From the NCBI GenBank assembly GCA_963924565.1, contig OZ004615.1, forward strand, positions 7,998,001 through 8,062,000: DNA of 64,000 bases, given 5' to 3'. The notes under the pieces were generated by a model that saw only the letters and a list, made by a program, of their open reading frames with translations, was not told where the DNA came from and made no database searches. Made by a program: the position numbers and the translations under genes. Each line of letters opens with the position of its first letter. Within the stretch, counting starts at the first letter, position 1. Shown piece after piece: positions 6,070 to 64,000 of this stretch. The DNA is from Ascidiella aspersa. Its lineage: Eukaryota.

Positions 6070-6603
6070 CAGTGGTTCTCAAACTGGGGTCCGCGGTCCT
6101 TTAGGGGTCCGCGAGACAATTTTCTGGGACCGCGAAGCACCTAACAAAAAAACAGCACGACGCTCCTGAAGAAAAAAATTCTTCGTGCAATAAAATTTTC
6201 AGGCAACTTACTTTACGAAACCAAGCTGATTATTATTGTTAGTTGTTCATTCACGTTATTGTACGCTTTAAGTTGAATTGTTCATTGTGACGTCATAGTG
6301 TTGCGTTGTGCTAATGAGAATTACGTTTTAACAGCTTGCTGCGCTGACACTGTGGGCTGTAGGGCCACGGTTTTAAAACTATTCGTGATTGCTTCACTCA
6401 AATAAAGTGATTCGTTAGAGGTTAACATAACCGTTATTAACCAAGCATATAGCAAAGAAACAAGTGCACCCGTCCCATTGATACCATTAAAACAACGGGT
6501 TGTTTTGTGTTTATTGGGTATATTTTTAAGGGACCGTGAACAATTAAAAGACCTTGCTGGGGGACCGTTGCGTATTTTTTTACAAAAAGTTTGAGAACCA
6601 CTG
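6070..6603. mobile_element. hAT (Buster/Charlie-type) MITE
   Basis: TIR CAGTGGTTCTCAAAC / GTTTGAGAACCACTG; 8-bp TSD TTCTAACA. Confidence 0.9.
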
Positions 6604-28460: not shown

Positions 28461-30023
28461 TCTTTGTAATATATATGAGGTCTTGACAAAGTTTTTGCGA
28501 CGAATCCCGAACGATGTATAAACTTCGAATAGTGTGAGCTTACACTAGCGGGTACATGTTTTGGTGCTGAATTGCTCGGAAAACAACAGGAAATGTTCAA
28601 AATGTCAAGGAACGTAAACTAAGATCCTGTTTAATTATCAATTAATTTTTGTTCAAACTGCTGAATTCTATTTTCTATTTCATCTTGCCATTAATGATTA
28701 TATCCAATTGTTTCTGGAAATCACCATCCGTTAGGTTAGGGTTTCTCAACCGTGGCCCCCCACGAAGCGGTTGTTGGGGGCCACGGGCATAACTCTCTAG
28801 CTGGTCGTAGTATTTCAAAAGTCAACTACTCAAGTGTCATTATTTTCAAAATTTGCCAGTTCCAAATTGGAATCGGATTCTGCCGTTTATATCGCAAACT
28901 GGAACCGAATAAATGTGTTCGTTTTATGGCGGAAGCTTACGCGTAATCGAAAATACGTGAGTGGCAAGTTTGGATTAACGCTGCATTTCGTTGTGGCGAA
29001 ACATTTACTGTGTCGCTTCGTGTAACCATGTAGTGCGGCGTTAGCGCTATTCTGGTTGACCAAATACTTTCCGATAATTATAACCTAAGCCTAATTATTA
29101 AGTATCCATCAAATGCTGTTGGGCGAGTACCTAACGTGTAACGCCAGGTGTGGAAATTTCGTTTTAAGTTGCAAAAGAAACATTTCATCGTAAACTTGCC
29201 CAAGCGCGCTACGGGTTAGTCCAGATCAACTTTAGGCCAGTATTCAGCGAGCTAATACGCCACAGCGTAATTGTGACGTAATAGTAACGCAATAATGACA
29301 GTGGTAGCTTTGTATTCTTTGCAGATTTTGATTGCCTATAATTAACATATCACAATGAACTAGAACTAGAGCACAATATTGTTTTGTGTTGCACATACTA
29401 TATAAGCAAAATATAAGTTTTGGCAACAGCCTCGTGTTTCTATCATGTTTTAGGTTTTGTTTAGTTTTTTTGTGTAGTTATGCACTCCAATTTAACCAAT
29501 TTATTTAAGTGGAAGTTGTTTAGAATCTTAATAATTTTAATTTAAATTTCGATTACAATATGTAAAACTTAAACGACTCGAACGACATGGCAAAATTAAG
29601 GTGTGCGATTTAAATAAGCAAGGCGGTTATCCGCGTGGTGACGCAAGAGTGCATCTCTGTAGTTTTATCTATGGATATTGTCGATGTACTCTGCTGAATT
29701 GTTTAGAAATCAGTTCTATTGCGTTGTACATTATTTACTGCGCTTCTGTTATTACAAAGTGAAAGTTACTTTCCTAAAAAAATTCCTATTCCGACCATCA
29801 GGTATCCCTTTTGGTTTTCCTGTCATGGCCTGTCAACCCGTCTTGGCATATCATTAGACCAACTTTAAAAGGGAAAAAACAACATTTATAAACAGCAAAA
29901 GCAATGTTTGATTGATTTTAAAACAGGCCTTGAAACCAATAAATAATATATATTGTTTTAATAAAAGCTTGAGAAGCGCACCGCTCCGAACAAAAATCAG
30001 TCAGCAAGGTGTAAAACTTTAAT

Positions 30024-30064
30024 ACAAATATGCATTTCGCCTATAAATGGCATCATCAGTTTGT
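30024..30064 (-). ncRNA. minimal type I hammerhead ribozyme (inverted arm copy)
   Basis: Exact reverse complement of 33325-33365. Confidence 0.85.
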
Positions 30065-30436
30065 CTGTACAAATAAATAGTAAAAAATTAAAATATTAAA
30101 ATATAAATGTAAAATAAATACATCCAAGATGAACAAAGACAAAGACAGTCTGCGTATAAACCCCAACCACTACTGTAAAACAAAAGCAAAAGGAGCATGC
30201 GATACGTGTAGCGGCCACAGAAAGCCACTGATAAAAACACGGCCCAGAGGGAAGCGGTATGAGAATCAGTGACGTAGCAAAACACGGTAGATAAGAAAAG
30301 GTGGAAAGGCAAAAACAACCTAAAACCACAGTTAGACAAGAAAACGGATATGACTCACATTCCGAAATGGAACGGCACAACGCAAAAACGAAAAAACAAA
30401 TCCGCAAAGATATATATAAAAATATATATAAAAAGG

Positions 30437-31326
30437 CTACCGAATTTGGGGCAATATCATTTTTTGAATGTTAATTGAGGCTCTGGTGAGTTTGAGCCAT
30501 TTAGCCTCACATTCATCGAGCTTGCTGGTGTCTGGCTCTTCAACGAAAATTACCGTAAAACATTCGGCAATATGCGGATGTTTCTTTAACTTCTCGCCAT
30601 GGTAGGTTGCGTAGTGGTGAAGCAGCGCTGCGTTGTCGTTTGTTGTTGCTGAGTTAAATGTATTCCAGGTCGTTCGGTGTGCGTTCCACCTAACAGAAAA
30701 CCTGTTCTTGGTTTGACCGACGTACTGGGCAGAGCAGATGTTGCACGTTGCCACGTAAATTCCGTGGTTTCTACAATTAAGGCTTTGCCGGAGCTCTATG
30801 GTCTTACCTGCAGCCTTAAGTTTACTCGATTCACCAACCATCCCTTTGTGTCCCCCATGGTGACCGCAGAGTGCGCATTTGCCGCACGGCGTTGACAAAC
30901 CGACTGCATTGCCAAAGGTGTGCGCAAGTTGTCGGTAGTTAGTAAGAAGGTTACCGAGTGTATGAGGCCTTTTGTATACTATTTTAACTCGTGGTTGAAG
31001 CGCCTTTTCTTTGTTTGAGAGCCTGAGTAGATGAGCGAATGGAGTAGCCCATGCGACAACACGGTCTTTCGTCTTTTCTTTAGTGTGTCGGAGTCTCTCG
31101 GTCCACGATTTAGCCTCATTAAGGTTGTAATCCGTGAGGCCAGCGGGAAAACAGGACTTCCTGCATTTCATCTTCAGTTGCTNNNNNNNNNNNNNNNNNN
31201 NNNNNNNNNNNNNNNNNNNNNNNNNNNNNNNNNNNNNNNNNNNNNNNNNNNNNNNNNNNNNNNNNNNNNNNNNNNNNNNNNNCCGATGGATATGAAAATG
31301 ATATCATCAATAAACCGCTTGAAGAT
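30437..31326 (-). pseudogene. inverted, more truncated copy of the Penelope-like ORF (from the FIDD motif to the stop; interrupted by the N gap)
   Basis: The 30437-31171 ORF translation is identical to the C-terminal 244 aa of the plus copy; 31283-31326 encodes IFKRFIDDIIFISI. Confidence 0.9.
31183..31282. other. assembly gap (100 N) inside the inverted arm
   Basis: The flanks map to 32207 and 31889 of the plus arm. Confidence 0.98.
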
Positions 31327-32952
31327 CTTGCATCTTGCCAATTAACGGATATCCCTACCCGCCTGCTTCAGTCTGCTGGAAACACCTACTGCTCCCGTTA
31401 TACAGCATTAATTGAAAATATCCTGAAGCCAATCAGTGTAGCATACTGCCGGAATATACTCAATGAATATTGCCAAGACAGTAAGCACTACATCACTGAG
31501 CTAATCAATTGGAAGAACGGCGTAGCAAAAGAAAGTCTAAAGGCGGAGGATATCTACATTGTGGCAGCAGATGTGGTAGCGCTTTATCCTAGCGTTAGCA
31601 GACAGCTCATAAGGCGTTCCCTAGCCCGCGCGTTAGAGCTACACTCTGGGTTAAACCCTGTGGGCTGTAAATGTCTCCTGGATTTTACACTGTTCACGAT
31701 GGACAATGTTATTGTCCAGTATGACGGGAGTTTTTATCGTCAGAAAGAGGGTATTATAACAGGCGACAATCATTCCGTCTCAATAGCCAACATTGCCATG
31801 CACTTCATCGTTGAATCGATCGCAGACACGTTAGGCACGGCTCAAATCTTCAAGCGGTTTATTGATGATATCATTTTCATATCCATCGGGGTCAATACCA
31901 CGCAAAGAATTAGATCTGCGCTTTTGTCGGCATTCTCCAACGAGGGACTGCAATTAACATTTCGGGTTTTTTGTTCGGATTACCCTAAATATGACGTTGA
32001 ATTTCTCGATGTGCTTCACGCTCACTCTAAGACGGCTTCACTAGGATTCACAACTCGGGACAACGTTAAGATCACAGCAAAAAATAGATGTTTTTTGCAT
32101 GGTTCCTCTTACCATCCATTGCATATTTACAAATCTATTGTGTTGGGTGAAGCAAGCCGCCTCAGGAGGCTTAATGAATCCGATGAGGACTACCACCGAA
32201 GTCTAGAGCAACTGAAGATGAAATGCAGGAAGTCCTGTTTTCCCGCTGGCCTCACGGATTACAACCTTAATGAGGCTAAATCGTGGACCGAGAGACTCCG
32301 ACACACTAAAGAAAAGACGAAAGACCGTGTTGTCGCATGGGCTACTCCATTCGCTCATCTACTCAGGCTCTCAAACAAAGAAAAGGCGCTTCAACCACGA
32401 GTTAAAATAGTATACAAAAGGCCTCATACACTCGGTAACCTTCTTACTAACTACCGACAACTTGCGCACACCTTTGGCAATGCAGTCGGTTTGTCAACGC
32501 CGTGCGGCAAATGCGCACTCTGCGGTCACCATGGGGGACACAAAGGGATGGTTGGTGAATCGAGTAAACTTAAGGCTGCAGGTAAGACCATAGAGCTCCG
32601 GCAAAGCCTTAATTGTAGAAACCACGGAATTTACGTGGCAACGTGCAACATCTGCTCTGCCCAGTACGTCGGTCAAACCAAGAACAGGTTTTCTGTTAGG
32701 TGGAACGCACACCGAACGACCTGGAATACATTTAACTCAGCAACAACAAACGACAACGCAGCGCTGCTTCACCACTACGCAACCTACCATGGCGAGAAGT
32801 TAAAGAAACATCCGCATATTGCCGAATGTTTTACGGTAATTTTCGTTGAAGAGCCAGACACCAGCAAGCTCGATGAATGTGAGGCTAAATGGCTCAAACT
32901 CACCAGAGCCTCAATTAACATTCAAAAAATGATATTGCCCCAAATTCGGTAG
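31327..32952 (+). CDS. Penelope-like RT + Cys-rich linker + GIY-YIG endonuclease ORF, 5'-truncated
   Basis: Frame is open from the junction at 31327 (LASCQLTDIPTRLLQSAG...), extending the 31561 ORF. RT motifs ADVVALYPS, YRQKEGIITGDNHSVSIANI, KRFIDDI, VEFLDV; thumb FLHGSSYHP..KSIVLGEASRLRR; CGKCALC..LNC linker; GIYVATC..C..YVGQT..R...H GIY-YIG. Confidence 0.93.
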   Translation, partial: LASCQLTDIPTRLLQSAGNTYCSRYTALIENILKPISVAYCRNILNEYCQDSKHYITELINWKNGVAKESLKAEDIYIVAADVVALYPSVSRQLIRRSLARALELHSGLNPVGCKCLLDFTLFTMDNVIVQYDGSFYRQKEGIITGDNHSVSIANIAMHFIVESIADTLGTAQIFKRFIDDIIFISIGVNTTQRIRSALLSAFSNEGLQLTFRVFCSDYPKYDVEFLDVLHAHSKTASLGFTTRDNVKITAKNRCFLHGSSYHPLHIYKSIVLGEASRLRRLNESDEDYHRSLEQLKMKCRKSCFPAGLTDYNLNEAKSWTERLRHTKEKTKDRVVAWATPFAHLLRLSNKEKALQPRVKIVYKRPHTLGNLLTNYRQLAHTFGNAVGLSTPCGKCALCGHHGGHKGMVGESSKLKAAGKTIELRQSLNCRNHGIYVATCNICSAQYVGQTKNRFSVRWNAHRTTWNTFNSATTNDNAALLHHYATYHGEKLKKHPHIAECFTVIFVEEPDTSKLDECEAKWLKLTRASINIQKMILPQIR

Positions 32953-33324
32953 CCTTTTTATATATATTTTTATATATATCTTTGCGGATTTGTTTTTTCG
33001 TTTTTGCGTTGTGCCGTTCCATTTCGGAATGTGAGTCATATCCGTTTTCTTGTCTAACTGTGGTTTTAGGTTGTTTTTGCCTTTCCACCTTTTCTTATCT
33101 ACCGTGTTTTGCTACGTCACTGATTCTCATACCGCTTCCCTCTGGGCCGTGTTTTTATCAGTGGCTTTCTGTGGCCGCTACACGTATCGCATGCTCCTTT
33201 TGCTTTTGTTTTACAGTAGTGGTTGGGGTTTATACGCAGACTGTCTTTGTCTTTGTTCATCTTGGATGTATTTATTTTACATTTATATTTTAATATTTTA
33301 ATTTTTTACTATTTATTTGTACAG

Positions 33325-33365
33325 ACAAACTGATGATGCCATTTATAGGCGAAATGCATATTTGT
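33325..33365 (+). ncRNA. minimal type I hammerhead ribozyme in the Penelope-like 3' region
   Basis: acaaa-CUGAUGA-u-gcc(auuuaua)ggc-GAAA-ugca-UA^-uuugu: 5-bp stem I, 3-bp stem II, palindromic AUGCAU stem/loop III typical of the minimal hammerheads of Penelope-like elements; predicted cleavage after 33360. Confidence 0.85.
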
Positions 33366-34768
33366 ATTAAAGTTTTACACCTTGCTGACTGATTTTTGTT
33401 CGGAGCGGTGCGCTTCTCAAGCTTTTATTAATAAATTTTAGAACTTTTATCGTCGGCATTATGTGTTCTGTTGGAGGGCCAGATTCTGTTGTTAATACAC
33501 ATACAAAGCATATATTGTTTTACTTTGAATATGTGGATGCAAAAATCATCCAATCTTGTATTTTCCTTGAATATGTTTTAAACAAGTGGCAACCAACTTA
33601 TCTTTGAATATTTGTTTTAAAATAAATAGAAAATACTATGAGTAGTAGAACGGCCTCATCGCCATCTTGAAATATATCAACAACAAATGATTTCGATTCT
33701 AGAGCAAAATGCAATTTCTGCTAAATTAGCCTATATTTAATGCACTTTGGGGGGGGGGGGGCAAAAGTGCCCTTTTCATGAAAAATAGTATATTGCTTTC
33801 ACAACGTTAAATATTATGCGACGGAAATTATAAAGGGGGTAGGGATTGAGCTACGGAAAAATGCAAAAAAAATTCGTAAAATGACATGCTTGACACTTGT
33901 TAAAACATTTTTGGTACCATTCTAAGCCAATCTAGAGGGCGTGGCCGCAAAAAATTTTCCGGGGGAATACCCCCGCATCCCCAATATTTCGGCTCGCTAC
34001 GCTCGCTTGCGGTCTATGTTGCCCTTAACAAAAAAGTCGCCCCCTTGCTCGCAATCGATCCGGCGTCCCTGCTTATTAGGCTTGTTATGCCTGTAATCAT
34101 GACCTGAAAAAAATACTCGATTTAGTTTTGGTCGATTGACGTAATACGAAAACAAAATGTCGGATAATTATTTTATGTATTTAAAAAACGTTTTCGGGTT
34201 TTCGCCTTAGTTAACAAGGATGTTTATTCTAAACAACACCAAACTATTTCCTTCACCTCCAACTAGCTATAGCCTATACTGCATAAGGAACGTAGCATTA
34301 CACCACGGAGACAAATGCTGTTGATTTACAGGTTGTAGCAAACCTTCGAGGAGCCAATATTTCTGCAAAGCAATTAATCTTTTTTAAATAACCCCGAGCA
34401 TTTTTCCAATCGACTTTTTGTGTTTGTAAAATTTAAGCGATGCAATTAAAACTAAATATTCTACCAAGACTGCTGTGATAAGTGATAGCATTGGTTTGGC
34501 GATAATAGAACATTTGTAAATTGAACTGTGTTATCATAAATTTGTGAATGTTAATACATTTGTCTATATATAAACTTTTCGATGTGCAATGTCGTTTGTC
34601 GTTTTTTACAGTTTGCGAATTGCAAAACGCGCACACCCAAAAACACCAGTTCTAGAGGGGCCGAAACAGTTTTCTAGTTTTTTAGATACCTCTGCATATT
34701 TTACTGAATGTTTATAAATATGTGGATGGTGGATAGCGTGTAAAGAGAATTCGAATGTTGTTTTAAAG

Positions 34769-41409: not shown

Positions 41410-44400
41410 ATGAACATTTTATATCTTATCTGGGAGGGTTTGTTTTCTCTGCTTGAATTTATTGTAAGGTAAGAACGTGATTTTAAAGTAGGATTTTGTT
41501 TTTGTAGTAACCATTACGATCCATTCTACTATGGATCAAGAATTGAAATTAATTATTGTAAACAAGAAACAAAATTATGTTGTCCACAGTTCGCAGTTTC
41601 TAGTATCAAAATTGGTTGATAGCCTTGTTAAATTTATTTAAATAAAGCTTACAATAAATACAATTATATGAGGATACAATCGGGTAATGATGAAGTGCAC
41701 TTAGGTCACTGATTTTAAATTTTTATTTAGCAGGTTTCCTCTCTCAGAAAATCTACGAAACATACCAAGAAAATTCTTACATTGGAAAACTGAGTTAACG
41801 CCCAATTATGACATATTGATAGATCCATTAAAATAATAATCTAACAAAAAAAAACTGGCAGAATCATAGGACGTCGGTAATTTCCAGAATTGCCAAAAGT
41901 TCAATTCGTTTGCGCATTTCAAAGTGGCCAGGTTTCATACATGTTATACTTGATGAACCGGCCTTTTATGTCAAGTGCGTTTTGTTCAGACAGCAAAATT
42001 TACTAACTTTGTGTTCTTATATGTGAAATCCTGGTGTGGGTCAAAAAATAACCAGAATGTTTGTATTTTTTTTTAAATCCTCAGCAGGCCCGTAACTGTT
42101 TCCATTCCACATTCCGTGTAAAAACTGATACTAGCTGTGCTAAGGACATTAGTGTAATACCAAATTATATTTTCGTTTTCTTTATTTAACATTGTCTTGT
42201 TTTAGTTCACTTCACCCCACTTGGTTTGTTCTCTTGCCTTCCTACTTTTGCGTTTTCACTGATTCCCACTAATTGATTTTCGCCTTTGTTTTGTTGCTAA
42301 AGGGCAATTCCTTGGAAACCCCGACAGTCTTGTTTTGAGCGTGGTACACTGTATTTGTTAAGTACACTGTAGTTGTTTTATGACCAAGCGAGCTAGCGTA
42401 CGCGCCAGCCGCTGTGCTACAGTTCGAGCTTAGTGTTGTCGTTCGCGCCACACAGTCATACTGATAATAAATACTGAAGTTCAACTTACGTGCGGCATCC
42501 GGTCAATGACAGGCCGTCAAGCAGCGAATAAGATATGGCGTAACACTATTGCACCCCATCAACATTATGTATAAGTTGACGCTTTCTTGCCAGATGGTTT
42601 CTGCCGGCTAACTACAAATCCGTGGAGGGCGAGGTGTGCCTCATCACCGGAGGAGGAAGCGGAATCGGAAGACTCATGGCGATCGAGTTCGCGCGACGTG
42701 GAGCAAACGTAGTCATCTGGGGCCGAAGCAAAACATGTAAGCAATTTTTTTTAAGCTGAGCCATACTCAGCTTAGGTCAGTGGCGTAGCCAGTCGATTTT
42801 TTTTTGGGTGGGGGGGCATTAAGTCGTTCATGCTAAAATTAAAATAACGCAATCGGAGATAAGAAAGCGTATAAGATAGTCACAACACACGCTTGCATGC
42901 TTACTTGTGAGGACATTATTTGCTGTTGGGTTTTAGGCATTATTAGGTATATATTGTAAGCACTCCAAATTAAAAAGGGTAACTTGCAATTTAATGCCTT
43001 TTCGCTGCTACAGCTCTGGAACAAACGAAAGATCTCGTCCGTGAGATGGGAGGATCAATTTTTTCCGACGTTTGTGACGTTGCTTCCCATGATCAAATCA
43101 AGGACGCAGCTGCACGGGCAAGGAAACAATTCGGAGAGATCACGATTCTAGTGAACAACGCCGGTTTGTCAAATTTGATCTGCTCAATTTTCGTTTTGAC
43201 TTAAAACTGTGGTGACCACACATTTTATATCTGATTCAAATTATTGTGCTTGGCTTATTTGAAATAAGAATTTAGTCAAACCTGAATGTCCTTAATATAG
43301 AATATTTTATATTGGAATATATATGTTAATCAGTGTAATATAACCATAATGTTTTAAATAACAACAACGAAAAAAGTGTTCTTCTAAAACTATTAGACTC
43401 AATTGCAAACTTCCAGGGGTGGTTTACTGCAAGCAGTTGTTGGACCTAAGTGATCAGCAAATCGAGCAAACATTTAATGTCAACTCGCTTGCACACTTCA
43501 GAACGATCAGGGAATTTCTTCCGTCCATGAAGAAAAGCGATCATGGCCACATCGTGAATGTAGCAAGCGTCGTCGGTAAGTTTTAGCAAAAGTTTTACAT
43601 ACATATTGCCGCAGAAAGATTGGTGAAGTGTAATGTCGTCTCTTTTGACGCTGTACTCAAACTTTTATAGGTTCGAATATATTCAGTTCCATTAACTGAT
43701 GATGGTATAACTGCCTATCAAAACGTCCTTACCACGATGATGTCGATTTACTCGACCTTGTTGGCATTGGCGTTGATTTTTAGTCTACACAGCAGATCCG
43801 TGCATAGTGTATACCTAACTTAGAAAGACTTTGTTAAAAATATTATGATGCTACATATTTTTGGAAACTCAAAGGCTTTACGCAATGCATTTCAGGCGGA
43901 GGTTTATTGTCAAGGGAAAATTTTGTAAGAGTCAAAGTACAATCAATACTTCAACCCAATGTTGTAAGCACCGTAAAGTTGCTCAATTATTAACGAAATT
44001 TCTCTTTTTCTACACATCGGTTCAGGTTTATCGGCAAGTCCTGGTATGCCTGCCTATATTGCGAGCAAACACGCAGCTGTTGGTCTAAGCCAGGCTTTGT
44101 ACTTTGACTTGCAAAAGGAGCAGTGCAATGGGGTCAAAACGACCTTGGTGTGCCCTTATCACATCCACACTGGAATGTTCACGTAAGTCTGCTTGCTAAA
44201 ATGTTATTCGTTTATGAAGACGACGTGATTTACACAATTTTTATTTCTTGAATGAATATATTATTGTCATTTGTTGTATTAATTAGAAATACGTGAACAA
44301 ACTCAGGGGCCGGAGTCAATATTACTACTGTAAAACTGACCGAAATTTTATGAATTTATTATAAGTTTTGTTACTCATCTTGAAACAGCTCTTTGTTTAA

Positions 44401-44741
44401 AGATTTGTTTAGAAATTTAATTTTTTTTGAAAGGAGCAGTTTGAAATCGCTTGAACATTTCTTTCTAAAAATAAATAGGTAATAAACGTCTCATTTCCAG
44501 TGGCTTTAAAATCGACAAGGAATGGCTCATGCCGAGCCTGCAACCTGAAGAGACGGTGGAAGCCATCATGCACGCCGTCCTGACGAACCGTCCCTTCGTG
44601 GCGGTGCCTCGATTGATGTACGTCTCTTACAACATCGCATCCTGGCTGCCTATGAGGCTTCAGGCCGCCATTTATCGCTTTATGGGAATCAACGATGCTG
44701 TGGACGGTTTTGTGCCAACACGCGTGTACCAAAAAGTGTAA
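41410..44741 (+). CDS. SDR-A: SDR16C-family short-chain dehydrogenase/reductase (retinol dehydrogenase/retinal reductase-like), 302 aa; exons 41410-41468, 42594-42736, 43014-43163, 43417-43575, 44026-44182, 44501-44741
   Basis: Six exons with GT/AG ends total 909 nt in one open frame. Motifs: TGGGSGIG (Rossmann), [21 protein letters not shown], catalytic [17 protein letters not shown]-terminal helix region; N-terminal hydrophobic anchor. AATAAA at 45042-45047. Confidence 0.93.
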
Positions 44742-51705: not shown

Positions 51706-54700
51706 ATGAATGTATTTCAATTCTTGTGGGTGGCTATCAAGGTCCTAATTGAAACAATTTTAGGGTGAGTTTTGCAAATGTTGCTTGTTTGATGTGCTCA
51801 TTTAAAATTACAGATACGCAGAATTCGGGTAACCGCAAATTACTTTTCGAGTTTTGTACAGTGATTGCTCGTTTAAATTGGTTTGCAAGAAAAGGGTGAC
51901 TTGGAATAGGATAACGCTAACGAATCGCGGTCTTCATTCGCAGCGTGGCTTATTAATCGGTTTGGTTTATTTACACAGCGCCGTTGTTATCAGACTCACT
52001 CATTTGAAGTAACTCTTTAGCTGCAATGGCTTTTTAACGTTAGCCTACTGACCTACTCGAACCTATTATTATACAGATGGATTAATAAGGTCATTTAACT
52101 AAAGGATATATCCACATTATTTAACGACATCATAGTTTCAAAGTTTTAAGGTTGATGAGCATCTTCTTCAATATTGCGATTACGTTTTTACTGAAGTGTT
52201 TTCATTTATGTCGATTTCCGTGTGAAGTACGAAATAGCGCTTCTGCTCTGCAATCGAGCACAATGGTTGAAGGTTATAGTAAGACGCAGTAAAAATATCA
52301 AACGCAATAAGAAAACCCATACTTTATTAAGTGCTTTCTCAATCTGTTGAAAATAAATAGAGTTATTCGAAACGTGCAAAATGATACCTACTTCCGTATG
52401 GGCTTTGATATTTTTACTACGTCTTGGTCCGCTATCATTTGTTATCTTTTTGTGACGAAACAATTTCCTGCGTAACGCAGTGTGGTAAACAGGCTGAGTA
52501 CTATTGTATAGGTTTTTCCTGCTCTACATGCGCGTGGGCCGTGGGTACGATTGACGTACGTTGATGTGATGGCGGTTTGCTTTAAACTAGGAAAGCATAG
52601 ATAGAAATCAACGCATCGTTATTAAATAGTTGTTTGAATGGCAAGATTACACAAAACCTACTGATACTTGATATCCGGTGGACAGTAGGCCGCCTTAGGC
52701 TTCAGGCAGTCTGGCAGTGTTTTGTTTTAACACATGGCGAGCCGGGTTAAAAATATCTGTTTGGGTAAATCTTCAAACTGCCATTAAGACTAGTACAAAA
52801 ATTATTACAGCTGAAAGGTAAATTTGTAGATTTTTGTAATACTTTTCTCCCCTAAATACAGCAAACTTACTTACTATAATGGTGACTTCAACTAATGTCC
52901 AGGACGGAAAATTGTCTTATACCATAGTATGTTAAACGACCTTCAAGCTTATACTGCATACCATATCCAGGATCAGAAAGACAGTGCTTCGTACTGTCTA
53001 TGCATTTGCATAGAGCGCACATGACGTAAAAGGCTCCAGATTAAGTTGGAGCAGAGGTTATAGGGCAGCTTTGTTAAAGCGCCTATTGTATTGCTTAAAA
53101 CCAAACGTTAACTGTTTTTTTGTAACACAAGCTGCGATACGGATAATAATCACAGTGTTTGCTATATGTTTTATTAGTGACCTGGTTTGCTTTTAATGAA
53201 AGTCTCTGGAAAATAACGTACGGGTGCGATGTCTTTGTGTAGTTCAGGACTTTGTTTTGCATAAGGTTGACATTTGCATATCGAAAGGAAAACAAAGCTT
53301 GAAGTACTGTGTGTAAAATTAATACAGCCTAACTGACTAACCCTAAAAAACTCATCGCGACCCCAGTTTTGTTAGTCATGATTTAGATTTGTACAAAATT
53401 TAATCCATTGGGGGGCCGGGGGCCTCCCCACCCCTCTGGGGGGCGCAATAGGTCAGCAAAGGGCGTTTGAAGGACATAAGTTAACGACGCAAAAATATTT
53501 GTTTTTATGGCTAATCCACAATAGTTTTCATGAATATCTTTCCCGATTTTCGTTGCAGTCAACTTTAGATATAAAAATAGTATAGTACTTGTACGACAAG
53601 CCTGCTATTTGTCTGTTCCTTTTCATCCAATGAACCCAATTGTTTTGCTTGGCAATGTTGAAAATCATAGTTTTGCCAAAATATTTTCCTCCTATGCCAG
53701 CAAATTATGTTTGTTCAGCATTCCGTCCGAAGTCTATGTTTGCCCTTGTCCAAATATCCAACTTTGCGAACAACGACGTGAATCTCGACAGTGTTTGCGC
53801 AAACGCTAAACACCTTTGCTTGAGTAACGTTCAACCTGTAATTAGACAACCAGTGTAACACTTCTAAAAAAATCAGTCCTATTACATTGTTTTAAACGCT
53901 AATATACAAAAAATACCTTTTTTAGTGGTGAGAAAACACTCTAAATTCTTGAATTAACTTTAACCAAAACCTCTAATCTATTTAATTTTCGAACCGTTTG
54001 GCGAAAAGAAATAGGCCTGAAACGCTTCATATAGTGAATTGCCATTAAGAAAACCCTAATTTTATTTAATCTAGACCAGGGCACTTCCTTAAATCATGTT
54101 AATGAGGCAGTAAAATACACCAAGCATACGTTCAAATTTAGCATGTACGTTCACAGATGGATATTGCCAGCCAGATACAAATCAGTTGAAGGCGAAGTTT
54201 GTCTGATTACTGGTGCTGGCAACGGAATCGGAAGACTGATCGCAATCGAATACGCCAAGAGAAAAGCAAAGCTTATTCTATGGGACATCGACAAAACAGG
54301 TAATGATAGGGGAAATAAGGGGTTGGATAAATGTGTTTTTACTCTTGATATACGATTTAAAGCGGTATAATGGAGTTCCGGACCTCTGGTAAAACTCGTT
54401 CTCCTATAAGCATTAGGACACGTTAGTCTAATAAAAAAAACGTTTACAAATAGTTAGAAACGCTCCTGACTAAATGTCATGAATTATTACCGGGCCATAT
54501 TCCGCGTAAAAGAAACTTGATGCGCTTGAACGAACACATATCGTGTCGCTTTACTGATTTTTTAATTAGCTTTTACTGTTTTGTTGTAACACGAGACTTC
54601 TAGGTATTGAGTGGAATCGTATGGTGTGTAGCGTTTTCGATGGAAGGCCCCAGTCTTAGACGTCACAGTTTATATTACCCTACGCTACAGGAAACTCCTG

Positions 54701-57700
54701 GAATTCCTAACCTTGTTTGTATATCACCTGGCCAAACCTGTCTAAACCTCATGAACACCCGCAAACTACACGTTCGTTAGAAAACGACGCTTTATCGCCT
54801 TTAGAATATGTTTAAACAATTAACTGTCCCGCCGGTTCGTAAATAACGTTACTCCCAAGGGCCGCTGTAAAAGATGTGAAACTAGAAATGAGAATTCTGA
54901 CTGTGCACTGTATTCGATGGGTAACAAATGGAAATATGGTTGGAATTACCAAGTTGTGGTGTCCAGGTCAAAAAAGAGCCAACAAATAAGGAATGTTGAT
55001 CATAATATATATTTAGTTAGCGCACTTTCGAAATAATGGTGAAACCCACATTGTGCCCTTACATAATCCATAATCCTGCTAAACTTTCGGACAATATCCA
55101 CTACTTAATGTGCAAGATAAAATACTGCAGTAGGTCCCATGTGGGCAATAGCACACAAAACCTTTACATAATATGAGGTGACCGGCAAAAGGGAAAGGCA
55201 ATCAAAATCACACGTAGGCCTATTGTTAAATTATCTGGAATCGCTCCCGTTAGTTTGGTAAACACTCTTCCATTTTCTTAGGTATTTGGTATAGCTCAAG
55301 CTAAAGCATGAACTGAGTTCGACAGCATTTGAGGCACCACCGGGCCCCTACGGAGCCATTTCGTCATGTTTGACTCGCGAGCAATGTAAAACAACGGCTT
55401 ACTGCGTCAGAAAGGTCACGTTCACAGAAGCAACAATGTTTTTAAACCAATTCTAACCGTCGAGAAGCAGAGTTTTGTTCCAAGGACAGCATAACCTTGA
55501 CAGATAACGTTAAATTATCGCATCTCTATGGCAATTTACGTTTTTTCATCACCACAATAATCTAAACCCGGCTTAAACCACTATTATTCAGCTTTTTAAT
55601 TATCATGCCCACCTACCATGGAACTCTCAACAATTACACACTCTTTGCTAACCTAGAGAATTCCGGTGGCACTATATAAAGACAAATTATATTGAGTTCT
55701 CGACAAGCTTTCGCACAACCGTGCTTCATCAGGTCAAAGTATAAATGAAGACAATTGAAAAGCACGTAAAAGCACAAGCGCGAGTAAAAGGCTTATACCA
55801 GGTTTTCTTAATCATGGTCCTCGGCCCCCCTGGGGGGCCACGGAGCGGTAATTGGGGGGCCACGGGCATAGGCGTAGCCAGGGGGACACATGGTCATTTC
55901 TCCGAAAAAATTATAATATATTTTACTCCTAATCATTTTTTGTAGCATTTATAAGCAGTACACAACTGTCGATCACAGGCATGCCACACCTTCAATTGTC
56001 AGGCACTGTTACGTCACAAACGATATAGTTATTATGTTTGCTGTATACTTATTAAAGTAGTTTTATTACTTTTAGTTATTTGTTTTTTTCTTTTTAAATA
56101 GATTTTAAGCATTGTGTTAAAACTCGACCAGTTGCTGAGCGAAATATTTTGCTAGTATATTTATTTGTTTTTGATACGGCAGTTAGTCAGTTGTAACGAG
56201 TCTCGCTGGCGGGAACCGACTAATAGACTTTTAATCGTAGTGTCATTACTGATTCGTTGTAAATATAGTTATTTGTTTATGTTTTATATAAAGTCGATTA
56301 ATCGCTGTGAGATAACAGTTTTAGTGTCAAGTTATATGTTTGCCTACTCAGCGTGTCTTGTCTTTTCCTGCATCAAGAAGCGTTGTTTTAAATCAAATAT
56401 TCTTACTAGTTCAAGTTCAAAATTTTTGCGCCACACATATTTCGGCTGGCTAAGCCACTGACCACGGGCACAACTCTCTAGCTACGTATTGCAAAACCAG
56501 TCACCACTTTCAAAAATTACCAGTTAACTTTATGACTGTAAAACTTTTTTGTAATGTTTTATAACACAGTTTTCTAAAACGTTTTTAGACGAGAGATGTT
56601 AAAAGTAGAAGCGTGGATCCTTTCTTTCGTTTATCGATAAACAGTCCGTAGGAAAACGCATGAAGTACGCTGGGTAACTCAAGGCCATTTTAGGACAATA
56701 CTCAGCTAGGTTGGTTATGTAAATTAATAGTAATTCATAAACCGAAAATCCTAAATCATCTTGACGAATGTAGTAACATTGGCTTGGCTCAGTACAAATT
56801 ATAGCAAAAAAACAAATTTTGAGACAACTAAGTGCATTTATTCGTTGATTAATGTCTGTATTTGATATTAACGTGAAACAAGAAAAAATACTCGTAGAAA
56901 CAACGCTAAATATTTTTTTATAAGCAGGGTGGCGAGTGTTAAGAACCTTTCAAAGGGGGCCACGAAGCATAAAAGGTTGAGAACCACTGGCTTATACTTT
57001 GACCTGATGAAGCACGGTTGTGCGAAAGCTTGCCAAGAACTCAGTACAATTTGTCTTTAGACAGTGCCACCTGAATTCTCTATTTGGAATTAGACAAATA
57101 CGGCCATTTACAAAGTTTGCTAACCTATAGTCTATATAGATGCTTTTTATTGCGCTTGACGTGAATACTTTTTTAAAAAGCGATTTAACATCAAGATTAT
57201 ACCAGCCCTATATTCAAAGTACACCAACAACAGATAACAGTATTATATCATACTTTAAAATCCGACCGTATCAACTATAAAATTATTTGTAAAAAACAAT
57301 GTACGGACCGTTGAGACTGTGCTGTGTTTGGTTTTGGCCCCCGACTGGAAATAGGTTGCCCATCCCTGCTACACAACTATGTCATAGGCAGTGGTTCAAG
57401 CGTAAGTATAAAAGAAAGCTTCGCGACACAATTTCCTTCACTTAACATTTTAATAAAAAATACATTAGCAATAATAAGTTCGAATGTAATTAATAAGCGC
57501 CTTATTTTGTTTTTTTCGCAATGTTATTAAATGTTCGAAAAAAACGTACCAATCTTAGTCCACCTAACCATACAAAAGTATATTTGCAGTCGGCGCCCTA
57601 ACAAAATTAAACCGCGCGCATGTGTTGAGAAACACTGTGCTAGATTGAGGCCGTAAATCAGCGTTTTTAAATATTTTTGTCATCGCGAACCAAATACTAT

Positions 57701-60700
57701 AAGCGTAAGTTTAACAACAACACTTGGCGACCAAACGATCTTCATGATTTTTTAAGCAAACAAAAATAATAAACATAGCAGACCTAATTTCCAATTTAAT
57801 TAATATGAGTAATTTATTCGTAGTGTTCCGGCAATTTTTCTCAATTAAAGGACAAATCTTGCTCAGAACCAATCTCAACCAATTTAGCCATGTAAACTAT
57901 TGCAGCAGTCGGCGACCAAACCAAATCAATTGGCGAACCAACTATAGGTCGCGACCTATAGATTGAGAAACACTCGAGGTAATTATTCGACCATTTTCTT
58001 CTTTTGTTTTACAGGCGTGGAGGAGACAGGAGCAATGGTGAGGGAGCTGGGTGCTCAGGTGTTCACTGACGTGTGCGACCTTTCACAGCAAGAGCAAATC
58101 GCGAAAGCCGCCGAAAAAGCGCGAACAATTTTCGGTGACGTCACCATTCTCGTGAACAACGCCGGTGAGAAAGTTCGTTTTTTTTCGGTGCATATTCTCC
58201 CATAAGTATATGTTGCTGGACACTGCGTCTGTAAACCTTTAAGCAGAGGTTCTTAACCAGGGGTTCGTGTACCCCTTGGGGTTCGGTATACTACTAGTTT
58301 TAGGGGGTTTATCAAGGTATAAGTATTAGTGTAAGTTTAAGGAGTAATCCATTTAAAAAAAAGAGTTTAATTAAAAATAAAACGGTATTGCACTGAATGT
58401 ATTTAGGCTTTATTTTACTTTCACAGTTTTCGGCCTGAAATCAGCATTTTTCGGCTATTTTTTCAGCCTGAAATTAGCAGTTTATTGTATTGTGACGTCA
58501 ATTTATGACGTCATCTTTGAATTTTTTTGGTCTAACATTGTCCACGCGAACCAAAAATTTGTTTAGTGGTCCGCATGAAAAGAACCACTGCTATAGATAC
58601 TCTATTTGAATGACGGTGACATTCATGACTTCGTATTTTGCGGTCATTTAATTTAGTTTAAATTGTTTTTGACAACTCGACCTAAATGTTTTCAATTATG
58701 TTAAATCTTAGCGTACATTTAGAAACAACTGCTGGCTTTAAGTTTTATATTAAAAACATTTGTATTTAATTTCCCAATAAATTCGATTAAACTGTACCCA
58801 AACCGAGGATATTTCAACGTTATTTCGGTCTAACTCTAAATTCGACTAATATGCTATATCAAAACAGCGTAAAAATAGATCACAAATCGTGACTATCGTG
58901 TCGTTGTGTCAAGGAAATCATTTAAACGCAACACAACCCCCTCACAAAGTTCAAAGTACAAGCATTACTGTGCTGTGTCAAGCTATTGTATTCTGATTGG
59001 AATGTGGATTCAGGAAATATCAGCCTCAAATCAAATAGCGTTTTTTAAGTGAACTTTTAAAGCCAAATGAACTAATATCCATGGAAATAGAGAGGTCTAA
59101 CAAAAACTCTATATCCCTTTACAGTAAACTCTCGTGTCCAGTAGTGCAAGTAAAACCGCCACCCTTAGATAACGTTTTGCACGCTCCGTTAACTCTTACT
59201 AAAAGCCTGCCCTATAAACAGAAGCTCCAAATCACGGTTGAAATCTTTCACCCACTTTATAAAATCACACGTGTGTACAGACAATTTAACTTGGAGGGAA
59301 TAATTTTTGCAGCATTGTTAAGTGTGCACAACGCTAAGTATGTGTTTCCACAACAGAATCATGTCCTTCAAAGGAACACATAAACGCCGACCTTGAAAGT
59401 TCTAGAAGTTTATAATAGCTTGGCCGCACAATAATAAAGTCAGCCAGGTTAAAACGTGTAAATGGAGATATGCATTTTAAGTGAATGGTATCATCAGTTT
59501 ATCTGTACAAATAAATAGTAAAAAAGTAATAAAATATAAAAATGTAAAATAAAACATTTTGACTGATTGTTGTTCGAAGCAGTACGCTTATCAAGCTGCT
59601 TGTAAATGGCGAGATATACATTATTAAACATATTGTTCTCAATAGGTAAACGAAGCGTTACCAGGCACTGTACGGTTTAAACTTAGAACGTCATTATGTA
59701 GTGCAAAGTGGGTAACATTCTGCCCGCCATTTTTTTACAAAATGGTAACTAGACGATTCCTTATTTTTTTGGTTGTTTCAACTATCGTAAATGCGATAAG
59801 TTCCTTCGCTTTGCGCAAATCTTGTTCATGCATCTAGTATGTTTGCTATTTGAGGCAATATTGTCAGCCTTAAGGTGTCATGCCTACCCTTGATTGGAAA
59901 TATTAATAATTAATGTTTTGCCAAATTATTATTTCTAAATGCATTCCATTGCGCTTCACACGATCCATCCTATCTTTTCAATATGAACTAGAGTTTAACG
60001 GGGTGACCCATTTCCCATTGAAAACCCTTTGTTCGCCCTGATTAACAGTCTATACAGTTGTTATAATAAAATTTACCCCGAAAATGTATGCTCAATTGGC
60101 ATGTATGCACACGAAAATAAACTAAAATTCGCTTGCTTATAGTTGTTGGTTTCCGGTCAACTTTGGAGTGGGTTTTCAAAAAGCATAAAAAGCATGTTTG
60201 GACTGCTTTAGTAAATTTACGCCAATATAAATTGCTATAGCTTTTAAAATCCAGATGCGTAAAATCAAACTATTCACTTTCCATTTCGTGTGTACCAACA
60301 TCAAAGCAAAGCTTGACCGAACTACGGATATGGCAACATAAGGCCACGCGTGGATTTCCCATTACCTCGGCAAAGGTTGCTTTGCAGACAAATAGCTGGA
60401 ACACGGATGCTTGTTTACCACCAAACAGTCGAAAAGGGAAGCGTGAAATTTGAGCTCGCGCCTGTGCGTTTCCAAACTTGCCAGCACAAGGAAACCGACA
60501 ACAACCTGAACCTAAGCCAGTTGACTTTCGTATGTGTTGTGCAGCCCAACAAACCCATGGAAATACCCATGAAAACATTTGACCGCCTCTATTAAAACAT
60601 GTACAAATGTTTTAGCCTAAACTTTTAGCCTAGATGAAATGTGGAAAATGCGCAAGCAAAAAATTAAGTCAGCCTGTTCGCATAGTAAATATGTTATAAT

Positions 60701-61642
60701 GAACTTCACACGAGGTCTGTAATGAGCCAAGGTCCTACAGACAACTGATCAATCCCACGAAACAACTTTTACTTAGTTATGGTGCAAACGAACACTACAC
60801 ATACACATTGTAAGACACTACATTCGGGAATTTTGTTTAACCTAATCTAAACGTTGTACTCGATACAGGCATCACGTATTGCAAAGACTTGCTGGACCTT
60901 TCGCAACGCCAGATAGAAATGACCTTCAAAGTCAACGTGATGGCCCACTTTTGGACCTTGAGAGAGTTTCTCCCGTCGATGCAGCGCAACAATCATGGAC
61001 ACATAGTGACGACGGCTTCTGTAGTTGGTAAGTATTCCAATCCGTGTTAACTTTTCCTTGAATTATTGGCGCGATACATTTCGTAGAAGCATGAGTTGTG
61101 TTTGTCTTCAATATTAGTCTAGCTTTGACCACAGACGGTAGTCTAGCTTTGCCCGCAGACGTGCCGTTTACCAGATTGACGATGTGGTGATCATCGCCGT
61201 AACGGTTTGCAAGAACTCGACCTAAACGCATTGCGCCTTGCGTTGCAAACCGAAACATTTTCGAGGATAGCCTTCCTCATAGCTTAACCATGACACTAAC
61301 CAAACGCATCAGTCGCGCATGAAACAGAATAGGAGTTTTATGCTCAACATCTTTGCCGATTGATCAGAACGTAGGTTGATGACCAGTTAGCTGCACTAGC
61401 CGAAATCCAATCAACAGACCACGCATTTGCAATTTTTGTTAGTCAGTTAGTCACGAACTGGTAATTAAACACCCAAGTTAAAATCGCTCGCAATACAGTG
61501 CGCTTAAATTTATAGAAATACTTTGCAAATCAAGATTTTTCACCAGGGAAATGTGGCGAGTTTTGAGGTTACACTGCCCTGTCTACAATTTCTCGCTCAA
61601 ATGCAATTTAAAGCGTTGCACTTACATATGCCTTTGCTAGCG

Positions 61643-61679
<37 letters not shown>

Positions 61680-63598
61680 TTATTTTAAAAGTTTTAATAG
61701 AGTCTGACCTGAATATGCCAGCTTTGTCAGAGTTTCTGCACTTCGATAAATACACTTTTTACATCTTCCTTTTGTTGGCTATGGTATTTATGGCTGGTGA
61801 GTCGTTTAGGCGAAAATTATTTTAACGAAACTTATAGTTATTAGAAAATAATCATCGTAATTACAAAACAGGAACTTTCCACCCGGAGAACAAAAATACT
61901 CCAAATGCAGACACACGCCATGGCCGACAACAATAAACGGGTGCAATTAATGTGGATTAAAACTTGCTACACTGAACATATTAAGATTAATTTTGTCCGA
62001 TAATATCGAACCGGGGCCGATACTCGATGTCAAGTTGCATCTGTATCTGTACTCTTCCGATACTATAGGTTGTAATCGTTCTGATACCAAATTTCAACAA
62101 ATGCCTTATGGGTTAAGTTGGCATACGGCGTGGAAAGTTGTTAATCCAGCCACGTTCGTGTTAACTAACTGTATGACAACTGTTGACCTAAATGTCTAAT
62201 ATTGGCAATGGGAATATGTGATTCGTATTAAATACATTAATTCTGTTGGCAAAGCGCGATATGAAAAAAGATTTTAGTACGACCAATACCAAATCTACAC
62301 GTGTTGAAGATAACTTACAAGAGTATGCTTTTATTAAACAGATTACAACTATGAGGTAATAATGCTATACGTCAAGCGTGACACTTACAATTGTTACCAA
62401 TATTATTTATTTGTTTAAAACTTTGTCTTTAATTTTGTATCTTGACCGGCGACCCAGAAGAGTCATCAAGTGAGCCAACATTAGGTGGCAACTCATAGGC
62501 TAGGTACATAGGGTATTCCTGTGCTATATTATATGCCCGAAATCACAACACACTTGCAATTTTATGACAACCGTCAGCTGCGAACTGTCAATTGCGGACC
62601 TAAGTAAACTTCTTTTACAATGCAGTGTGGTTTAACTTACAGTGAGGCTATGGCAAAAATAATATTTTTTTATTAAGCCCGTTTTAACGTTACAACGCTG
62701 TCTACAAGTTTTGAGTTTTGACGTTCTACACTGCTCTGTCGACAATTCCTCGCGCCAAAGCCATTTAAAGCGTCGCATTTAAATAAACAAACTTCTCTCG
62801 ACGACCTTTTGTTGGCGCCGGCATTTTCGGCCTAATTAGATGAATCGTTTACGGGCAAATTATTTCATTATTACCAATCGTCGTTATTACAAAACGGGAC
62901 CTTTTTAATCCACAACACCAAATGTCCGAAATCCAGACACACGTCACGGTAGTGACGAAATTTAATTCGACCATACTTTAATTTACGCTGGCGAGGTACC
63001 GGATTCAGCGTTAATTTTGCCTTCAGGGTCCATGCAATTAAAAAGCCTTTGAAATAAAAAAAATATGGAACAACTTGCTTATTTATAATCTCCCAACTGC
63101 AATTATTTTCCCTACTATTCTAAATAGGGATGTCAAATATTTAGGATTTTGTTTGGAAACTTACATCTTATATATTTGCCGATAGTGTATCAATGTTAAT
63201 CAATCTTCGACTTTAATGTTATATTCAACAATTAACCTCTCAGTGTACAAAACTGCATTAGATTACAAAACAAGGCGATAAGTAATTTGTTATCGGTTCG
63301 GCATCGATTCTACCAGAGTATTGGAAGTTACAACCAGTTGAAATCGGGTATCGGGACATTGGGTATCAAAACAATCATTGATACAAAACGAAAGTTTGTT
63401 CGCTAGGCTTTGCATAAATAAAAAAAATATTTTAAAAACAGGTCTTATTGCCACCGCGGGAATGCCGGACTACAATTCAAGCAAGCACGCCGCAGTTGGA
63501 CTGCACCAATCGATCTACTTTGACCTGCAGAAGAAGAAGTACGACGGCATCAAAATGACACTGCTGTGTCCCTACCACATCACCACTGGCTTATTTAA
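51706..63598 (+). CDS. SDR-B: tandem SDR16C-family paralogue (RDH10/SDR16C5-like), last exon beyond the window; exons 51706-51764, 54157-54299, 58015-58164, 60869-61027, 63442-63598
   Basis: Exon lengths 59/143/150/159/157 are identical to SDR-A and the frame is open. [66 protein letters not shown], catalytic YNSSK, LCPYHITTGLF. Confidence 0.92.
55699..55738 (-). ncRNA. minimal type I hammerhead ribozyme
   Basis: uuugac-CUGAUGA-a-gcac(gguu)gugc-GAAA-gc-UU^-gucgag; stem I 6 bp including G-U pairs; palindromic AAGCUU. Confidence 0.8.
55799..56989. mobile_element. hAT MITE nested in the small Penelope-like insertion
   Basis: Ends CAGGTTTTCTTAA / TTGAGAACCACTG; TSD GCTTATAC; a related left end occurs at ~28737-28830. 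Confidence 0.85.
55867..56460. mobile_element. MITE nested inside the preceding MITE
   Basis: TIR CATAGGCGTAGCCAG / CTGGCTAAGCCACTG; TSD GCCACGGG/ACCACGGG. Confidence 0.8.
56998..57037 (+). ncRNA. minimal type I hammerhead ribozyme, sense to SDR-B intron 2
   Basis: uuugac-CUGAUGA-a-gcac(gguu)gugc-GAAA-gc-UU^-gccaag; one mismatch in stem I. Confidence 0.72.
57389..57975. mobile_element. adjacent hAT-MITE remnants
   Basis: CAGTGGTT.. start and two TTGAGAAACACT ends; GGCGACC subterminal repeats; TSDs not recognisable. Confidence 0.5.
59333..59597. mobile_element. old, diverged relic of the first Penelope-like family (minus arm 59333-59556 plus short plus-strand arm 59560-59597); hammerhead decayed
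   Basis: 59333-59420 matches the reverse complement of 33420-33509; 59468-59556 matches 30028-30123; 59560-59597 matches 33386-33423 directly. CUGAUGA is kept but GAAA and stem II are mutated. Confidence 0.75.
61645..61673. repeat. (AT)n microsatellite
   Basis: Direct reading. Confidence 0.9.
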
Positions 63599-64000
63599 GT
63601 GAGAAACAAGCGGACACATTATTTGTGAATCGTCTATATTTATTAAAAGCCTACTGCGATTAGGTTATATCCGCAAACGGTCATAAAGTCGTCTGTAATC
63701 AGGGCTGCGGAGTCTTGAGTACAAAACAAGTTCGACTACGGCCTAGAAAATAAAGTGGAGTTCGACTATAGCCAAATTAACCGACCCCATCGATCTCTGA
63801 ATCTGCTTTCGGCTCCGCAATCCTGTTTTCCGTCCATCAACGTAACTAAAATAGGGTCGACATATACTAGAGCAGAAGTTTTCAACCTATGGGCCATGGC
63901 CCAGTAGTGGGCCACGACACTGTTTTTAGTGGGCCACAGAGCTTTGCATACAGTGATGTCAAAAAAAATGTCATTATGAACACATAAGAGTCCGACAGAT

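Follow-up and report, generated by a model that had tools for sequence, protein, structure and literature searches.

Several features recur in Penelope-like elements (PLEs). According to the available text of PMC8557442, an inverted, 5′-truncated copy adjoins the 5′ end and inverted repeats flank the unit, a tail of 30–40 bp is present, often at one end, and hammerheads lie in the terminal repeats. The same text gives a CX2-5CxxC motif between the RT and the endonuclease for the Neptune and Nematis clades. Pen2 and Pen2a of Adineta vaga follow the same scheme, with a 31-bp tail in Pen2a and duplications of 9–10 bp (accessible part of PMC3846280), and the accessible part of PMC8969392 lists, among the features used in curation, both inverted ends and short 3′ extensions. 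The portion of PMC11167929 at hand describes two RT start sites that bound the tail and a preference for cutting at ATT, and reports that the PLE hammerhead is not needed for insertion. In Schistosoma, minimal hammerhead ribozymes (min-HHRs) occur in pairs on opposite strands, 100–700 bp apart, and are related to truncated elements; single min-HHRs gave no cleavage in vitro and dimers gave low cleavage (available sections of PMC4209133). Retrozymes are defined in the available text of bioRxiv 10.64898/2026.07.22.740005 as same-strand tandem repeats.

Here we analyse a locus in the window (the whole 64-kb stretch of Ascidiella aspersa DNA under study), at which a first-pass annotation had described a pair of inverted hammerheads within an intron that mimics the TIRs of a DNA transposon. 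We are highly confident that it is a 261-bp non-coding, 5′-truncated and 5′-inverted copy of a high-copy Penelope-like family, a copy that the RT/GIY-YIG protein of this family likely made in one round of target-primed insertion, that a single hAT-like element split afterwards and that is likely undergoing neutral decay. This reading draws on the anatomy of the locus, its family, the ORF of longer copies with the same layout and the even divergence of the arms across copies, all of which were observed directly. The window locus is ordinary mobile DNA, one more copy of a published type of insertion.

Anatomy of the insertion

The two arms of the insertion (Table 1) pair over 91 nt with 92% complementarity. 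A 7-kb stretch contains 51 inverted pairs, of which this is the longest, the runner-up reaching 30 nt at 70%. The seven mismatches are at arm positions 42, 44, 53, 56, 69, 71 and 81, with no difference at positions 1–41. The first-pass annotation, which had placed all seven in the distal 50 nt and had called 41 nt identical, is borne out here, as it is for the 91-bp inverted repeats, the 12-bp target-site duplication and the 33-nt tail. The size that it gave, ~260 bp with nested MITEs removed, also stands, at a net Penelope-like insertion of 261 bp of non-coding sequence, but the nested DNA is a single element and not several MITEs.

Table 1. Features of the insertion and of the intron that holds it (window positions).
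Feature	Position	Strand	Remarks
Host intron, short-chain dehydrogenase gene	54300..58014	+	GT..AG; exons 54142-54299 and 58015-~58164 join in frame
Left target-site duplication	55644..55655		12 bp, TTTGCTAACCTA; final 2 nt fit the arm too
Inverted, 5′-truncated copy of family 3′ end	55654..55792	-	~139 nt; stops short of the tail; right arm pairs with 55654-55744
Minimal type I hammerhead, antisense to host gene	55699..55738	-	Stem I paired 6/6, two G-U
Left 8-bp duplication of nested element	55791..55798		GCTTATAC; overlaps the head-to-head junction
Nested non-coding DNA element	55799..56989		1,191 bp; short imperfect TIRs; two internal deletions compared with family copies
Right 8-bp duplication of nested element	56990..56997		GCTTATAC
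Right arm, forward copy of family 3′ end	56992..57082	+	91 nt; pairs with 55654-55744
Minimal hammerhead, sense to host pre-mRNA	56998..57037	+	Inferred cut site 57031/57032; stem I A-C mismatch
Tail	57083..57115	+	33 nt, at one end only
Right target-site duplication	57116..57127		12 bp, TTTGCTAACCTA

At the window junction, the 5′ end of the insertion is adjoined by the inverted, 5′-truncated copy. Since family sequence on the left extends to 55792, the arms lay 48 nt apart, head to head, before the nested element inserted. The inverted and forward pieces meet head to head without microhomology or a palindrome at the junction.

The nested element belongs to a family whose copies measure 1,258–1,570 bp at the three of 11 other loci where both ends are in view; the duplication at these three loci is 8 bp, with 7 of 8 positions matching at two of them. 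Several nested MITEs are ruled out, the DNA being one element of this family with two internal deletions. We take the element to be hAT-like from its 8-bp duplication and short TIRs. Pfam searches with its 101-aa and 116-aa frames returned nothing near the cut-off.

In two samples, contigs lead from unique flanking sequence into the left arm, one of them identical to the window and the other with 10 differences, and the insertion is therefore shared. The arms of the window copy differ by 7.7%, against 0–3 bases in young copies, which makes it an older copy. No empty allele of the insertion was present among the 15 of 76 joints listed.

The host intron, placed in SDR-B by the first-pass annotation, lies between in-frame exons of a short-chain dehydrogenase gene; its number there, 'intron 2', hinges on a putative first exon around 52398–52471 that no RNA read backed. 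The host exons are on the plus strand, in agreement with the earlier placement of the plus hammerhead copy as sense to the host pre-mRNA. In ~6% of one RNA data set, exon depth at the locus was below 1 and the reads on the arms were mostly those of other copies. These reads showed no pile-up of molecule starts or ends, at a depth that speaks neither for nor against cleavage. Tandem short-chain dehydrogenase paralogues, at 42583–44741 and 54142–63602, are 54–68% identical over three exons.

A high-copy family with an RT/GIY-YIG frame

Searches of the genome (308.6 Mb in 75 contigs) found 369 exact copies of a 28-nt core (control, 0) and 790 matches to a 23-nt piece of the tail at ≤2 mismatches (control, 1). 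The top 30 copies have a common 3′ end and are of variable 5′ length. A tail sample was assembled from 70 of the 76 exact-tail copies, chosen independently of the hammerhead and reduced to 69 by dropping one duplicate; it includes the duplicated loci L123/L124, L158/L159 and L166/L167. An inverted arm is present in 43 of these 69 tail-selected copies (45/70 by BLAST, including one pair of tails) and there is none in the other 26. Both the lengths of the arms and the points of inversion vary between family copies. The head-to-head layout is the commonest in the family sample and has already been published for the class, and on both counts the arrangement in the window does not merit the word 'hidden' that was first attached to it.

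Exact duplications flank 25 of the 54 anchored copies and are absent from the remaining 29. Their lengths are narrowly spread, at 12 bp in 14 copies, 13–15 bp in seven and 8–10 bp in four, this last class perhaps consisting of longer duplications that may have been broken by mutation. The tails of these 25 copies are 31–43 nt long. The trinucleotide ATT follows 63 of 113 family copies.

Upstream of the shared 3′ end, family sequence continues into a GIY-YIG frame. One copy, L059, holds a 488-aa frame (1874–3337, minus strand) that matches RVT_1 (E=3e-10) and GIY-YIG (E=2e-7), both above the Pfam cut-offs, and its linker between RT and endonuclease contains C-X4-C-X2-C at residue 349. The layout of L059 is that of the window copy at larger scale: a duplication, an inverted arm with the 488-aa frame, a forward end with its tail, and a 13-bp duplication. 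An RT with a C-terminal GIY-YIG domain, a minimal hammerhead, a fixed 3′ end, an inverted arm and a tail at one end identify the family as an EN+ PLE.

The first-pass annotation proposed to look for an autonomous partner. Longer copies carry the RT–GIY-YIG ORF, the longest open frame being 488 aa, but among the best-scoring candidates, 10 stretches of 8 kb and 11 RT matches, there is no intact full-length master in partial tandem, a point against the favoured reading; the 11 matches to the RT part of L059 include none that is longer, or more than 90% close, apart from L059 itself. The closest named relatives of the L059 protein are turtle proteins (unnamed, ~50% identity). The listed named proteins from tunicates, lancelets and sea urchins are 36–44% identical to it, below the turtle value.

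A second, unrelated Penelope-like element of the same layout occupies 29958–33480 of the window. Its arms (29958–31182 and 32207–33431) are 1,225 bp long and 100% identical; either the element is very young or an assembly effect lies behind the identity. Its 555-aa open frame, 23% identical to the L059 protein, contains RT, CxxC and GIY-YIG-like motifs; the element also has min-HHRs at 33330 (plus strand) and 30059 (minus strand), and a run of N at ~31184–31282. At another locus, L056, a 60-bp tandem repeat (a Pro/Thr-rich unit of 20 aa) makes up a 683-aa open frame at 139–2190, ~2.6 kb from a family copy.

Identity and formation of the outer unit

Inverted ends of 91 bp, and a duplication that is most often 12 bp (14/25), are also what would be seen if the outer unit were a TIR DNA element (MITE) that a transposase had moved and whose TIRs carried hammerhead-like sequence. 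The length of the duplication alone would not exclude such an element. What does so is that family sequence runs straight into an RT/GIY-YIG ORF, that the arms vary in length and inversion point from copy to copy (26/69 copies having no inverted arm), and that the 33-nt tail stands at one end only. The TIR/MITE reading of the outer unit is refuted by the ORF linkage and the variable structure, and we accord it practically no probability. The first-pass annotation was right to regard the arms as hammerhead-bearing 3′ ends of a Penelope-like element and not as TIRs, the family being linked to an RT/GIY-YIG ORF.

For a target-primed Penelope-like insertion, two steps can be proposed by analogy. 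The endonuclease would cut AT-rich DNA, as suggested by published work on other PLEs. The cDNA would then start at two nearby sites on the RNA, one giving rise to the tailed end and the other to the tail-less inverted end.

Minimal hammerheads and divergence of the arms

Each arm contains, in order, CUGAUGA, an extra A, a 4-bp stem II, GAAA, a loop-less palindromic AGCU and UU, together with a stem I of 6 bp. The motifs were identified by reading the sequence against the min-HHR description in the available part of PMC4209133. Rfam returned no match at the gathering threshold, and no hammerhead among five matches at E≤10. For the plus copy, the position of the cut site inferred here agrees with that of the first-pass annotation. 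Arm differences 42 and 44 fall in stem I of the hammerhead, and difference 42 breaks the pair beside the cut site in the plus copy.

The identical 41 nt, noted at first with the caveat of small numbers and a post hoc boundary, pointed to a possibly protected catalytic core, with uniform substitution across family copies named beforehand as the outcome that speaks against it. Substitutions are indeed even across copies, and selective protection of the core is not supported. Arm-to-arm comparison within 32 further two-armed copies gave differences at 67/949 places (7.1%) over positions 8–41 and at 84/1,251 (6.7%) over positions 42–81 (p=0.80), and 19 of these copies had been chosen by similarity of the hammerhead region, a bias toward a protected core. 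The 13 tail-selected pairs gave 54/368 differences in the proximal part against 79/491 in the distal part (p=0.63); at the 11 catalytic bases of these pairs there were 21/125 differences, to be compared with the same distal 79/491 (p=0.89). All 11 core bases are kept in 16 of 55 arms, against 38% expected from distal divergence.

Comparison of 47 arms with the column majority showed 10.0% of bases changed at positions 8–41 and 12.4% at positions 42–81 (p=0.027). This skew gave p=0.13 once CpG and subfamily columns were left out and p=0.24 in a per-column test, and a lean of this kind would be expected if selection acted on the source elements and not on the copies once inserted. At the window locus, the skew of the seven differences has p=0.012, or 0.025–0.099 allowing for the post hoc boundary, and is most simply chance.

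Two further observations concern the pattern of change. Of 47 arms, 16 have a change at G8 (arm position 18), a catalytic base outside CpG; its neighbours are changed less often. Strand-biased G>A decay, the deaminase idea, was not seen (G>A versus C>T, p=0.54 and 0.18).

The sense hammerhead in the host transcript

The first-pass annotation raised the prospect that the plus copy cuts the intron. In its strongest form, selection would keep the sense hammerhead, which would cut the host intron at 57031/57032 and change the output of the gene. In favour of this, the plus copy has the same orientation as the host gene, two samples that differ in SNPs both have the insertion, and the core and stem II are intact in both arms and identical over 41 nt, compared with the 16/55 older family arms that keep the core. 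Yet the antisense arm, which is unable to act in the host pre-mRNA, is equally intact, and divergence is even across the arms of the family.

The chemistry of the motif also argues against cleavage. This type of hammerhead needs a partner on the same strand, and none is present for the plus copy in the 64-kb window; a lone min-HHR did not cleave in vitro in the available account of PMC4209133, and in that of PMC11167929 an Anolis hammerhead cut only with the element's protein. In the plus copy, stem I carries an A-C mismatch next to the cut site, and the predicted fold engages this copy in pairing with the left arm. On these grounds the plus hammerhead probably does not cut the intron, and selection for such cutting, with an effect on the gene, is very improbable.

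The predicted fold of 55640–57130 pairs 84 of the 91 right-arm bases with the left arm, the core bases doing so with probability ~1, and leaves stem II of the plus hammerhead a negligible probability in the same equilibrium. The antisense (left) arm is transcribed before the sense arm. In this model, pairing of the arms in the host pre-mRNA would give a duplex of 91 bp in which the sense hammerhead is masked, so that no cut would be made.

Double-stranded RNA and A-to-G changes

The other earlier suggestion, that the arms could form double-stranded RNA, is plausible from a predicted duplex of -137 kcal/mol and from A>G changes at the level of the family, the latter evidence coming from other family copies. 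In a forward family copy, L058, A>G was seen at 18 of 59 listed places in RNA reads and at 4 of 55 in DNA reads (p=0.002), the RNA and DNA being from different samples and the edited reads from other family copies, not from the window locus. Eleven A>G sites lie within 100 nt at 6102–6199 of L058, changed in 29–60% of RNA reads and in 0–2.6% of DNA reads; the 110-nt stretch that holds them lies upstream of the hammerhead and has 20 adenosines, of which these are 11. The base on the 5′ side is U or A at 8 of the 11 changed adenosines, against 2 of the 9 unlisted ones. U or A is the 5′ neighbour that ADAR prefers. The cluster likely reflects ADAR hyper-editing of family transcripts that fold back on themselves.

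The duplex of the window arms may likewise be edited by ADAR. It is a further step to suppose that such editing of arm double-stranded RNA in the host pre-mRNA measurably alters splicing or nuclear retention. The stability of the predicted duplex, the RNA excess in listed A>G places and the eleven heavily changed sites would all be in keeping with this proposal. Against it, the edited reads stem from other copies of the family, the listed sites map upstream of the sequence that would be double-stranded at the window locus, the RNA and DNA samples differ, and host exon depth is below 1. We regard the proposal as improbable. Broader still is the idea that head-to-head Penelope copies are the counterpart of inverted Alu pairs, forming hundreds of ADAR-hyper-edited hairpins, with the window duplex silencing its own ribozyme and altering the host transcript; this we consider a long shot. 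A literature search on edited inverted Penelope copies returned only a review of human transposable elements, which is too little to call the phenomenon unreported.

Implications

The favoured reading, a 5′-inverted Penelope-like copy later split by one DNA element, gives the window locus some use as a warning that the inverted ends of Penelope elements can be mistaken for MITEs. Its family provides a clean data set on how an inverted end and a tail are formed, and the A-to-G clusters in its RNA suggest that the inversions are edited as double-stranded RNA. An effect on the host at the window locus, if true, would mean that a hairpin built by a retroelement tunes a gene.

Comparison with known systems

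The window motifs resemble the metazoan PLE min-HHRs of PMC4209133, as described in its available sections: they are of type I, have an unpaired base between 9 and 10.1 and a G10.1–C11.1 pair, and are palindromic at 15.2–16.2 with no loop 3. Stem II is 4 bp in the window motif, whereas Schistosoma min-HHRs in the same sections have 7–8 bp.

Animal non-LTR retrozymes, as the available text of bioRxiv 10.64898/2026.07.22.740005 presents them, are similar in being non-coding, in having a type I hammerhead and in being PLE-derived. The locus was rejected as a non-LTR retrozyme: its two motifs are on opposite strands, the lengths of copies vary, and the 64-kb window contains no second plus motif.

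With Neptune and Nematis PLEs the family shares the CX2-5CxxC motif in the linker of L059. The Pen2/Pen2a elements of Adineta vaga, in the accessible part of PMC3846280, offer further points of agreement: a head-to-head inverted 5′-truncated copy, a one-sided tail (33 nt in the window, 31 bp in Pen2a), a short duplication (12 bp in the window, 9–10 bp in Pen2/Pen2a) and an RT followed by GIY-YIG. Unlike Pen2/Pen2a, the window copy is without coding sequence, and a DNA element has inserted at its inversion junction.
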